Of a DNA stretch of 61,564 bases, positions 42,001 to 45,000 are shown piece after piece. Position 1 is the stretch's first letter. Each line of letters begins with the position of its first letter. Made by a program: the position numbers. This DNA is from Escherichia phage SH2026Stx1: the sequence record NC_049919.1; one strand, 5' to 3'.

Positions 42001-45000
42001 ATGCTGGTCCGGCAGGCCCGCAGGGGCCGAAAGGTGACAGGGGAGAGCGGGGAGAGACCGGTCTGACGGGAAATGCAGGTCCACAGGGTCCAAAGGGAGA
42101 TACCGGTGCGGCAGGCCCGGCAGGCCCACAGGGACCGAAAGGAGAAACAGGTGCGGCTGGCCCGGTGGGGGCAACCGGACCTCAGGGACCGAAGGGCGAC
42201 CCGGGGGAGACACAAATACGGTTCCGTCTGGGGCCGGGAAACATTATTGAGACAAACAGCAATGGCTGGTTCCCGGATACAGATGGCGCACTCATCACCG
42301 GACTGACCTTTCTTGCCCCCAAAGATGCCACACGGGTTCAGGGTTTTTTTCAGCATTTGCAGGTCAGGTTTGGTGACGGGCCGTGGCAGGATGTTAAGGG
42401 GCTTGATGAAGTGGGCAGTGATACAGGCAGAACAGGAGAATGACATGAACATACTAAAAAAACTTATGCAGCGTCTGTGCGGGCACGGAAAGCATGATGA
42501 CCGTGAAGACGGGGAGTTACTTACAGCACAGCTGCGACTGGGACCGGCAGACATTCTGGAGTCAGATGAGAATGGCATTATCCCGGAGCAGGACAGGGTA
42601 ATCACGCAGGTGGTGATACTGGATGCGGATAAAAAGCAGATACAGTGCGTGGTAAGACCGCTGCAAATCCTGCGTGCTGACGGGAGGTGGGAAAATATTG
42701 GCGGGATGAAATAGCCGACAGCTTCACAAAAACCGGAGTCCGGCTCCGGTTTTTGTTGTCATGTATAGGGGGGTGCCCCTATTAAGTTGTCAAGCATGTT
42801 ATGACGCCTGCGGGGTATAAAAAGTCCCGTCGCGCATCATGGCGAACAGAACGTCGCAGCGTCGTCTCGCCAGGGCGATAAGCGCCTGATTGTGTCGTTT
42901 TCCCTGACTCATTTTGCGGGTGTAGTAAGCCCTGGAGAGCGGATCCCTGAGCGCGGCGAAGGCCGACAGGAACAACGCCCGTTTGAGAGCTTTATTACCC
43001 CGTCGCGAGGGATGCTCACCGCGTATTGACGAGCCGGATCGCCGAGTTACCGGCGCAAGGCCAGCATAAGCAGCGAGATGTGCGGCAGAGGCGAAGGCGC
43101 GGCAGGCGACCTCGGTGAGGAGTCTGGCTGCGGTCCTGACACCGACTCCGGGCATACTGGTCAGGACCGGGTAAAGAGGGTGAGCAAGAACTCGCTGTTC
43201 TACCTCAAGCGCCACCTCGTCTCTTTGCTTACGCAGCGTGATGAGCTGGAGTGCCAGACGTGGCAGTACTACGGCAGCGGCATTCGTGCCGGGAACGACG
43301 ACGGTTTGTTCGGCCAGTGCCTGAGCTATGTCTGCTGCAAGGCGTTTACCCAGACGAGGCGCAAGTTTGCAGAGCTGGGCTGCCAGCTTCTTCTCACCCA
43401 GCGAAGCGAGTTTTTCTGGTGAGGGATATCGCTGGAGAAGATCGAGTACCGCCGGGTGATCAAGTCTCGGACCGAGAACGCGCTCCAGTGCCGGATGTAT
43501 CTGGGTCAGAAGGCCGCGGATACGGTTGCTGGCCTGCGTTGTCTGTGCGGCAAGATCATCATCGAAGCCGCAGAGCATGGAGAGTTCGGCGATTTGCTCG
43601 TCAGCCAGTTTCAGCGTGCGTAGCGCGTGAGGCAGGGTACGGGCAGCTTCGGCAATGATGGCAGCGTCACGAGCATCAGTTTTAGCTTCACCGGCGTGTA
43701 AGTCGGCTATGCGGCGCATGGCCAGTCCAGGGAGGTATCCGACAAGGACTCCTTCTGAGCGGGCAACGGCGACAGGTAACGCACCGATGGTAGCTGGCTG
43801 ATCAACAACCAGCAGTATCTGACCATGTTGTTTCAGGTCAGATATTAGCGACCTGAGTTTGTTTTCGTCGTTGGGTAATGCTTTATCGAACAGGCGTTTA
43901 CCTGAACGATTAATGGCTACAGCGTGATGCGTATCTTTACCGACATCAACGCCGATAAAGACCTGGACGGATTCGTAATCGCTGGATTCGGTCATTCTGT
44001 CTCCCTTGTATATGGGTTAACCAGATAACCACGGGGAGCAGGTACCGGCATCCACGTTACAGACGGTCCCGGCAAAAGTGCCTGACCTGACCCCTATTAG
44101 CGGTTACCAGCGCCCCACCAGACCCGGTGACATCACCCCCCGGATCATGGACGACTGGGGGCAGTAATCATGCCGGGTCTGGCTGGCTAACACCCCATTA
44201 TAAGGGGTACGAATAAAGTAACGGGGGCTTATTAGAGAGTGAAGTAATAAACATGTTAATACGATGGAGTGAAGGATGCCGTGTAATTCTGGTTCAAGAG
44301 TTTTTTATGCCGGAAAATCGCAGGATTATTCTGGATAGTAAAGAATCCTGGTTAATAATCTGTGATAGTCAGTTGGGCCATTTAATGCGCAGTATGTATC
44401 AGGGACGCCGTTTTATTCAGCTGAATCTGGAAAAATTGAAAGGGGTACATAATGTCGCCTTGCCAGTGAAATGGGAATTCACACGAAGACAGTGAATAGC
44501 TTTCTGTATACGGGAATGGCGAAAAATGGACTGTATGGTGTGAGTGTGAAACATCTTGCGTGTGCGGAGTGATGCTTCTCGTTGCTACAGCGGCAATGAT
44601 AATGCAGTGAAAAAAGGGGAGCAATATGCTCCCCCAAACCGAAAGAAAATTGCAATAATCAATGAAGTTATTTAGTCATCATCAGAATGTCATGCAAGGC
44701 ATTTTGTTTCAGTGATGCCGATCGCGATTTTAGCGAATTCCATCATAAATCCCCTGATTTTTAAGCCTGAAGCAGTCAAAGGAATTTCTATGCCCTATAT
44801 CGATATCACCACGATGCGTGGGATGATGCCGCGCGTTGTGACATCCATGCTGCCCGAGCATTCCGCTGTACTGGCGGAGGACTGCCATTTCCGGTTTGGT
44901 GTTATTACACCAGAACGTCAGATATCCGGGGTTGAGAAAACATTCACAATTAAGCCAAAAACAATTTTTCATTACCGTGACGATTTCTGGTTTGCATGGC

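Follow-up and report, generated by a model that had tools for sequence, protein, structure and literature searches.

Positions 43996-44700 of Escherichia phage SH2026Stx1 (sequence record NC_049919.1; 61,564 nucleotides, here called the window) raise the question of what an 80-amino acid (aa) open reading frame (ORF), ORF80, and a hairpin fit to terminate only minus-strand transcription are doing between the recombinase of an IS110-family insertion sequence (IS), ISEc20, and the next tail gene of a plus-strand late operon. An initial annotation of this 705-bp stretch had offered three answers, i.e. a fragment of a gene disrupted by the IS, a part of the IS end, or a small antisense transcript. 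Taking the explanation as a whole, we consider it likely that three independent elements meet here, namely an IS end, a gene relic, and a minus-strand terminator with its RNA. All three belong to known classes: the IS end is of the IS110 bridge-RNA kind, the relic is a decayed moron, and the RNA is one of the Hfq-binding prophage RNAs with intrinsic terminators. The sole part with some novelty is the last, an apparently abundant Hfq-bound RNA of Shiga toxin (Stx) phages that has never been named or studied. The window is colinear with the Stx1a prophage region of E. coli strain 144 (NZ_CP028603.1), and the prophage is of the short-tailed Sepvirinae/Traversvirus type, similar to 933W and AU5Stx1. 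The locus is bounded by atfT, a small tail-fibre C-terminal gene (42445..42714), and by a 541-aa structural gene from 44790; the coordinates of the features between them are collected in Table 1.

The limits of ISEc20 emerge from comparison with the IS-free phage AU5Stx1. The left match to AU5Stx1 reaches 42773 and the right match begins at 44223, which leaves a 2-bp (GG) overlap, i.e. an IS110-type core without a long target duplication; the ambiguity of this core (GG, or CC in the orientation of the IS) concerns 42772-42773 and 44223-44224 on either side of the element. ISEc20 went into a G9/C9 run between genes, 31 bp ahead of ORF80; in AU5Stx1, the unoccupied site reads ...GTCATGTATA-G9-CTTATTAGAG (...TATA-G9-CTTATT). 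The first 227 bases of the stretch (43996..44222), which had been taken as flank of the IS, lie inside it, and the proposal of an IS end thereby holds for these bases but not for the remainder, as ISEc20 ends at 44222. Nor is the IS the disruptor of ORF80, since AU5Stx1, 933W, VT2-Sakai and about 150 other IS-free phages share ORF80 and the hairpin at 99.8-100% identity; altogether, 153 IS-free phage records match 44229..44800 in this range, AU5Stx1 at 100%. By these alignments, 44223..44610 is native Stx-phage DNA, identical in IS-free Stx phages. The IS itself was found at this site in only 5 E. coli genomes, out of about 351 with the locus. The idea of a disrupted gene was right in that ORF80 is a gene fragment, but the cause lies in deletions unrelated to the IS.

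ORF80, with its ATG start, was recovered in the ORF list. A length of 80 aa is in itself unremarkable, and the significance of this ORF rests on homology: it matches the families phrog_2014 (E = 6.6e-58) and phrog_6585 (2.8e-29), in the latter case with residues 7-70 on profile positions 21-84 of 156. The families phrog_6585 and phrog_9340 correspond to ORF-156C and ORF-60C of the Eib prophage P-EibC (AF151674), and ORF80 together with an out-of-frame stretch is homologous to the two halves of ORF-156C. Full-length members of the ORF-156C family have two domains and ~156-180 aa, of which ORF80 holds part of the receiver-like half only, with the helix-turn-helix (HTH) half out of frame; at its start, 6 codons stem from DNA that formerly lay upstream, and at its end ~14 codons are read out of frame. 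Unbroken homologues, 156-180 aa long, are found in P-EibC (ORF-156C itself), PhiR12_1 and 2B8; in podoviral prophages of E. coli G1/2, 99RCEF and CFIAFB20190167, they sit immediately before the same hairpin and tail gene. DNA and protein alignments with the intact homologues revealed three lesions. The native start and about 20 codons were lost in a deletion of 174 nt between short repeats, an internal deletion of 112 nt shifted the frame, and the ORF-60C-type gene was lost except for its last 13 codons. The HTH remnant is 92.6% identical in DNA to PhiR12_1 and aligns with the intact C-termini. For the 13-codon tail, comparison with the complete genes in PhiR12_1, P-EibC and E. coli G1/2, which encode 57-60 aa, showed homology to the end of ORF-60C. 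The difference from P-EibC is thus one of integrity, the copy in the window being broken by the three deletions.

What is left here of a two-gene accessory cassette is a decayed remnant. The cassette, which in lambdoid prophages lies behind the tail-fibre C-terminal gene, consists of a ~157-aa regulator followed by a ~60-aa membrane protein; after the three deletions, the window retains an 80-aa ORF that has lost the DNA-binding domain, an HTH relic in another frame, and the 13 codons of the tail. Since three deletions have wrecked the cassette, ORF80 is, judging from these alignments, most likely a pseudogene. It appears improbable that ORF80 (or its RefSeq 62-aa version, 44307..44495) is instead a functional small protein, i.e. 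a stand-alone truncated receiver-like domain kept by Stx phages. Its frame is open and identical in more than 150 Stx phages, it has a family of its own (phrog_2014), and the ratio of nonsynonymous to synonymous substitution rates (dN/dS) against 2B8 is 0.47, a value from 12 differences only, which does not prove a loss of constraint and in that respect weighs against a pseudogene. However, the whole module is of recent common descent, which accounts for the near-identity and leaves no independent variation, and the 5' end and native start of the gene are deleted, the C-terminal 14 residues being derived from the frameshift. Furthermore, the ORF-60 gene beside it is also destroyed, POCJ13-type phages do without ORF80, and the model of the intact protein suggests that ORF80 would lack about half of the receiver-like domain. 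For annotation, the outcome removes the original puzzle: the IS broke no gene, and relic status can be given both to ORF80 (ECs1230) and to a 39-aa ORF that some phage records annotate. The latter ORF overlaps both the relic and the hairpin, is without a family match and is probably not a gene.

For an intact member of the ORF-156C family, an AlphaFold (AF2) model with a predicted local distance difference test (pLDDT) score of 89.6 matched FixJ, RcsB, EvgA and NarL over their full lengths in Foldseek, at probabilities of 0.95-1.0. The model predicts a receiver-like domain joined to a LuxR-type HTH, i.e. the NarL/FixJ fold. The family would accordingly share its fold with regulators such as RcsB, EvgA and FixJ, but it lacks both their N-terminal acidic pair, with T-R-N in place of D-D after strand 1 (while D52 is invariant), and a match to their sequence families: neither Pfam Response_reg or GerE nor any NCBIfam family was matched (EvgA at E = 0.14 only), and the intact cassette proteins had no matches among PADLOC, Pfam, NCBIfam or PDB sequences. 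In the search done, the family was found in E. coli only. The prophage 'Psr' regulators were considered as intact members of the family and rejected, Psr proteins being AraC-type.

The cassette also resembles the phage morons found downstream of lambdoid tail-fibre genes. It is positioned right after the tail-fibre C-terminal gene and its terminator, and the locus swaps its cargo, with an adhesin and cor in POCJ13, phi315 and O104:H4, and with NleG, EibC and Eaa further downstream in siphoviral relatives. In the window, by contrast, the cargo is dead and lies inside a podoviral structural operon, not at the end of an operon. The POCJ13-type phages carry the adhesin and cor instead of ORF80, yet keep the ORF-60 tail and the hairpin. 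A 48-aa 'hypothetical protein' of POCJ13 and phi315 (2419-2565 of their locus stretch) is a frameshifted homologue of ORF-60C; in the annotated frame it continues across the hairpin, whereas in the other it ends in ...FVWLGAVAAVMMQ and a stop codon, like intact ORF-60C.

The hairpin, GGGGAGC-AATAT-GCTCCCC, has its exact limits at 44616..44634, close to the earlier estimate of about 44613..44637, and the T6 that had been noticed on the minus strand only was likewise recovered. The terminator scan reports the minus strand, with 9 pairs (6 G-C), a loop of 3 and TTTTTT (an A-run at 44610..44615 on the plus strand), and on the plus strand the stem is followed by CAAACC, with no T-run. As the scan found 2 terminator-like sites in 2.6 kb where 2.3 were expected from shuffles, the significance of the hairpin must come from sequence comparison. 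We compared two alleles, the 933W-type and the POCJ13/O104:H4-type. Their identity is 19-27/34 in the ORF-60 tail, 23-24/26 in the A-run and hairpin (with an identical stem), 38-40/73 in the next 73 bases and 77-79/81 in the 81 bases before the ATG at 44790. A conserved promoter in the last of these blocks was considered and dismissed, as the block merely belongs to the tail-gene module, which is 97-100% identical. Among all Sepvirinae-type alleles the stem does not vary, in contrast to the diverging flanks, and in PhiR12_1 it shows one compensatory change, C:G to U:A (GGGGAGC/GCUCCCC to GGGGAGU/ACUCCCC). The A-run is kept in every allele, and its retention beyond the stop codon, as U on the minus strand, points to that strand. 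Hairpin and U6 together are most likely a strand-specific intrinsic terminator under selection.

We regard it as very improbable that the hairpin acts on the plus strand, as a 3' stabilizer or processing barrier of a moron or late mRNA, and is no terminator. The stem forms on either strand alike, so that conservation of the structure cannot separate the strands, and the hairpin lies directly 3' of the ORF-60 stop codon in every context examined. But the run past the stop codon, of 5-9 A in nearly all alleles, is meaningful for the minus strand only, and the published reads in this intergenic region, from lysogens, are all minus-strand (PMC4104026). In PhiR12_1, a second hairpin of like kind, A6-CT-GGGGAG-TGCGTG-CTCCCC, is situated at 312-337 of its locus stretch, close to where a small ORF behind the tail-fibre gene ends, and the A-run/GGGGAG...CTCCCC motif may be recurrent in lambdoid tail regions.

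The small antisense transcript, the last of the three initial proposals, is supported by published minus-strand reads from crosslinking and analysis of cDNA (CRAC) with Hfq and from crosslinking, ligation and sequencing of hybrids with RNase E (RNase E-CLASH). Both concern prophage Sp5 of strain Sakai, which is identical to the window here (window coordinate = NC_002695.1 position - 1242823). In the Hfq CRAC data (Tree et al. 2014, PMC4104026, Table S1B), ECs1231...ECs1232 ranks 27th among the intergenic regions, with counts of 81206, 6030, 70478, 146246 and 3140 in one strand column and 0 in the other (5/5 samples). The columns were calibrated with known small RNAs (sRNAs), and since the minus-strand SroC, RyhB, OxyS and AsxR share the column of these reads, with the plus-strand Spot 42, SsrA, CyaR, MicA and ChiX in the other, the reads are minus-strand. 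In the RNase E-CLASH data (Waters et al. 2017, PMC5286369), two chimeras carry AAATGCCTTGCATGACATTCTGATGATGACTAAAT and a shorter version of it, mapping to the minus strand at 44704->44670 and 44703->44680, with no plus-strand match. A processing site may lie at 44704 or 44703, where both fragments start. In one of the chimeras the partner is MgrR, and CUUGCAUG is complementary to CAUGCAAG of MgrR (RNAduplex, -17 kcal/mol); this pairing motif is absent from the other allele. The region aligns colinearly with IS-free relatives, as ordinary intergenic sequence would, but a transcript is detected.

In 933W-type Stx prophages, the hairpin would form the 3' end of a minus-strand RNA of ~95-125 nt, transcribed from the spacer before the next tail gene, to which Hfq binds in lysogens, with RNase E also making contact. 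The hairpin is most likely the terminator of this unnamed Hfq-bound RNA, although several points weigh against such a reading. No canonical sigma-70 promoter was found on the minus strand at 44640-44960, where the best candidates reach 7-8/12 and the promoter-like sequences are weak (TTCAGG-18-TATGAT and AGGGGA-17-TAAAAT), so an RNA that we presume to have a promoter of its own could be a processed piece of a longer antisense transcript. Its termination at the hairpin is deduced from position only, and besides the terminator there is no secondary structure common to the two alleles. Moreover, the evidence for a transcript was obtained by a single laboratory in a single strain, Sakai (Sp5), which is not the host of the window, and the assignment of the CRAC and CLASH reads presumes that the locus is single-copy in Sakai.

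The lack of a good promoter also agrees with a different view, which we find unlikely, where the hairpin is the fossil terminator of a convergent minus-strand dinI gene from a siphoviral cassette, brought along by recombination and now functionless, and the minus-strand reads are pervasive antisense noise. In PhiR12_1, the same A-run and hairpin lie between ORF57 and a convergent DinI-family gene (Pfam DinI, 1.2e-16), whose stop codon is about 12 nt past the stem, and about 13 nt past the hairpin are still similar in the window. Against this, no dinI coding remnant was detected by tblastn beyond the hairpin of the window, and other dinI loci are without the hairpin, for which reason we also rejected it as a general dinI terminator. 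Further, the hairpin is intact while both flanks diverge to about 55-79% identity, and the Hfq CRAC counts are on a par with those of the named sRNA AsxR in 3/5 samples. An origin as a dinI terminator and a present use by another RNA are compatible.

That the Hfq-bound RNA at the hairpin has no EcOnc name may be because that catalogue left out peaks near annotated features, taking only those >100 nt from any of them (Sy et al. 2020, PMC7547250); ECs1231 (since withdrawn) and ECs1232 are both <100 nt from the site. The minus-strand ORFs that might represent ECs1231 extend across the terminator and lack credibility as genes. No paper was found with the gene names ECs1229-1231, the hairpin sequence or the read sequences in its main text. 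Like the enterohaemorrhagic E. coli (EHEC) prophage sRNAs AsxR (EcOnc02), AgvB (EcOnc01) and StxS (PMC4104026, PMC7547250), the RNA is encoded in an Stx prophage against the late operon, has a G+C-rich hairpin with a U6 tail, and was captured in the same CRAC experiments with comparable read counts. With the AgvB/AsxR group it also shares a variable body and a conserved terminator between alleles. It differs from all of these in its location in the tail-gene region, not at the stx moron site, in its absence from the EcOnc list and in that the hint at a target is one MgrR CLASH chimera, and it has no similarity to AsxR.

The RNA may have a regulatory role. A bolder version, which we put forward as tentative and rather doubtful, is that all 933W-type Stx phages carry an unannotated Hfq-dependent sRNA antisense to the tail operon and acting in trans, e.g. 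as an MgrR sponge. If so, its body (44636-44708) would exist in at least two diverged alleles with a fixed terminator, it would be expressed from the lysogen, and it would constitute a third Stx-phage riboregulator beside AsxR and StxS. Stx-phage sRNAs rewire host iron, amino-acid and toxin regulation. For EHEC biology, the relevance lies in an Hfq-bound RNA from the late region of Stx2/Stx1 prophages that is as abundant in CRAC as AsxR.

As for the IS end, ISEc20 has a 227-nt left end (LE) upstream of the recombinase as opposed to a 25-nt right end (RE), and in the IS110 group it is the LE that encodes the bridge RNA (Durrant et al. 2024, PMC11208160). The consensus fold obtained from 34 LEs with RNAalifold has a 5' stem-loop and two stem-enclosed domains. 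In it, 98.2% of the alignment cells are paired (36-51% in controls with slid partners), there are 17 compensatory pairs (3-6 in the slid controls), and none out of 500 shuffles (0/500) reached the observed values. The invariant strands of domain 1, (G)CCCCC and GGGGGG, correspond to the two halves, left and right, of the C-run target, while those of domain 2, GCU[A/G]AUAGGGG and CGUAACGUGGAUG, correspond to subterminal RE sequence (AATAGGGGCA) and, in reverse complement, to the LE start (GTTAC). The donor-matching segments within domain 2 are AAUAGGGG / UAAUAGGGG and GUAACG, which match RE ...AATAGGGGCA and LE GTTAC..., respectively. On the minus strand, the LE accordingly has the structure of a bridge-RNA-type gene, and by analogy with IS621 its RNA would guide the DEDD recombinase. 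Two points count against that function: the guide segments never vary among the relatives, leaving no guide/target covariation to read, and the donor matches that resemble the left and right donor guides (LDG, RDG) each require a 1-nt offset beside the core.

The likeness to IS621 and the IS110-group bridge RNA (PMC11208160; Hiraizumi et al. 2024, PMC11208158) comprises the long LE upstream of a DEDD recombinase, the short RE and the 2-bp core, as well as the 5' stem-loop and the two stem-enclosed domains with invariant strands that match target and donor. Furthermore, a -35 box in the RE (TTGACA) would join a -10-like box at the LE start upon circularization, with a spacer of 18 nt. The recombinase, however, is a distant relative that matches the IS621 recombinase in its C-terminal part only (PDB 8wt6, E = 1.2e-14) and has 398 aa compared with 326 aa, and the activity of the RNA is a prediction from sequence. 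In Rfam (E <= 1), no family was found for the IS end or the hairpin region, where only chance terminator-like matches (RsaOG, DapZ) occurred. Another difference is that the target of ISEc20 is a homopolymeric C/G run, as a result of which its two target guides are complementary to each other. A literature search on ISEc20 gave nothing useful. At the integrated junction (44222-44250, minus strand), the phage flank provides TTCACT 17 nt upstream of the -10-like TACTTT of the LE, and such a fortuitous hybrid promoter could, from its sequence, drive both the ISEc20 RNA and the recombinase.

The ISEc20 recombinase matched the Pfam domains DEDD_Tnp_IS110 (PF01548, 6.9e-49) and Transposase_20 (PF02371, 7.3e-22), and a genome-wide search gave relatives at 80 loci, at 73-99% aa identity. 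All of the 46 distinct left ends among the relatives (46/46) begin with GTTAC beside a C-run. Thirty further copies of ISEc20 from IMG/VR, of 1447-1449 bp, always start with GTTAC and end with GGGGCA, and most of them sit between C-runs (...[G/C]CCCC, IS, CCCCCC...). In three of the IMG/VR copies (1448 bp), what comes immediately after the right end is not a C-run but CGTTA[C/T]..., similar to the LE start; this could be a tandem or partial LE, or an insertion next to a donor-like sequence. Recombinases 73-82% identical to that of ISEc20 were found in Burkholderiales, Oxalobacteraceae, Microbacteriaceae (Actinobacteria) and several metagenome-assembled genomes, a host range that is unusually wide for one IS clade. 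ISEc20 and its relatives thereby make up a bridge-recombinase clade of Proteobacteria and Actinobacteria in which all members target homopolymeric C/G runs. The RNA structure of this clade is well backed by covariation and useful for work on bridge recombinases, and the IS left end deserves annotation as an RNA gene.

Table 1. Features at and around positions 43996-44700 of the window.
Feature	Coordinates	Strand	Basis or remark
ISEc20 (IS110 family), 1449 bp	42774..44222	-	100% matches to annotated ISEc20 copies (megablast)
ISEc20 DEDD recombinase coding sequence, 398 aa	42799..43995	-	Pfam matches
ISEc20 left end, putative bridge-RNA-type structured non-coding RNA gene	43996..44222	-	Covariation, layout
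5' stem-loop ACCCC/GGGGT	about 44190-44208	-	
Domain 1 stem, enclosing UGCCCCCAG (44155-44163) and CCGGGGGGUG (44134-44143)	44173-44183 with 44117-44127	-	
Domain 2 stem, enclosing GCUAAUAGGGG (44091-44101) and UGUAACGUGGAUG (44049-44061)	44110-44115 with 44035-44040	-	
ORF80, N-terminal (receiver-like) relic of ORF-156C-family regulator gene	44253..44495	+	phrog_2014, phrog_6585
Out-of-frame C-terminal HTH remnant, CRLASEMGIHTKTVNSFLYTGMAKNGLYGVSVKHLACAE, stop TGA 44570-44572	44453..44572	+	Frame-3 translation
39-aa ORF (AU5Stx1_730), probably not a gene	44556..44675	+	TTG start, spans terminator hairpin
Last ~13 codons of ORF-60C-type small membrane-protein gene, VMLLVATAAMIMQ and stop	44569..44610	+	Frame-2 translation
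Intrinsic terminator (most likely), minus strand only: stem-loop 44635..44615 and U6 (44615..44610)	44610..44635	-	Terminator scan, conservation
Minimum body of Hfq-/RNase E-associated RNA	44636..44704	-	CLASH and CRAC; true 5' end at or upstream of 44704
Next structural gene, 541 aa, phrog_511 'internal virion protein'	44790..46415	+	Start ATG 44790; RefSeq agrees

For the 541-aa structural gene, an alternative GTG start at 44712, by which the spacer would be coding, was rejected, as the PHROG alignment stops short of the resulting 26-aa N-terminal extension. Upstream of the locus, the collagen-repeat tail-fibre gene (40548-42443, plus strand) is a single intact 631-aa ORF in the window, although the RefSeq annotation by the Prokaryotic Genome Annotation Pipeline (PGAP) splits it into two pseudogene fragments, 40548..40745 and 41703..42443. 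Decay is apparent at several places of the prophage region (111-1324, 11659-11727, 29421-30003 and 48687-51560), with IS1203 inside the DNA-transfer gene of a neighboring prophage, an N-type antiterminator that is now a fragment, a frameshifted antirepressor gene and a lom gene split by ISEc8 (IS66 family). A lambda cIII thermoregulator element was identified at 6287-6345 on the minus strand (Rfam, 88.5 bits, E = 2.9e-20), within what RefSeq annotates as an 'IS3-family transposase fragment' (6126..6485) and 4 kb from the annotated cIII gene (10374..10538). Lastly, a match to the STnc100 sRNA family (195 bits) is found at 25322-25535 on the plus strand, just downstream of stx1B (24974..25243), i.e. 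at the kind of position where sRNAs flanking toxin genes have been described (Tree et al. 2014, PMC4104026).

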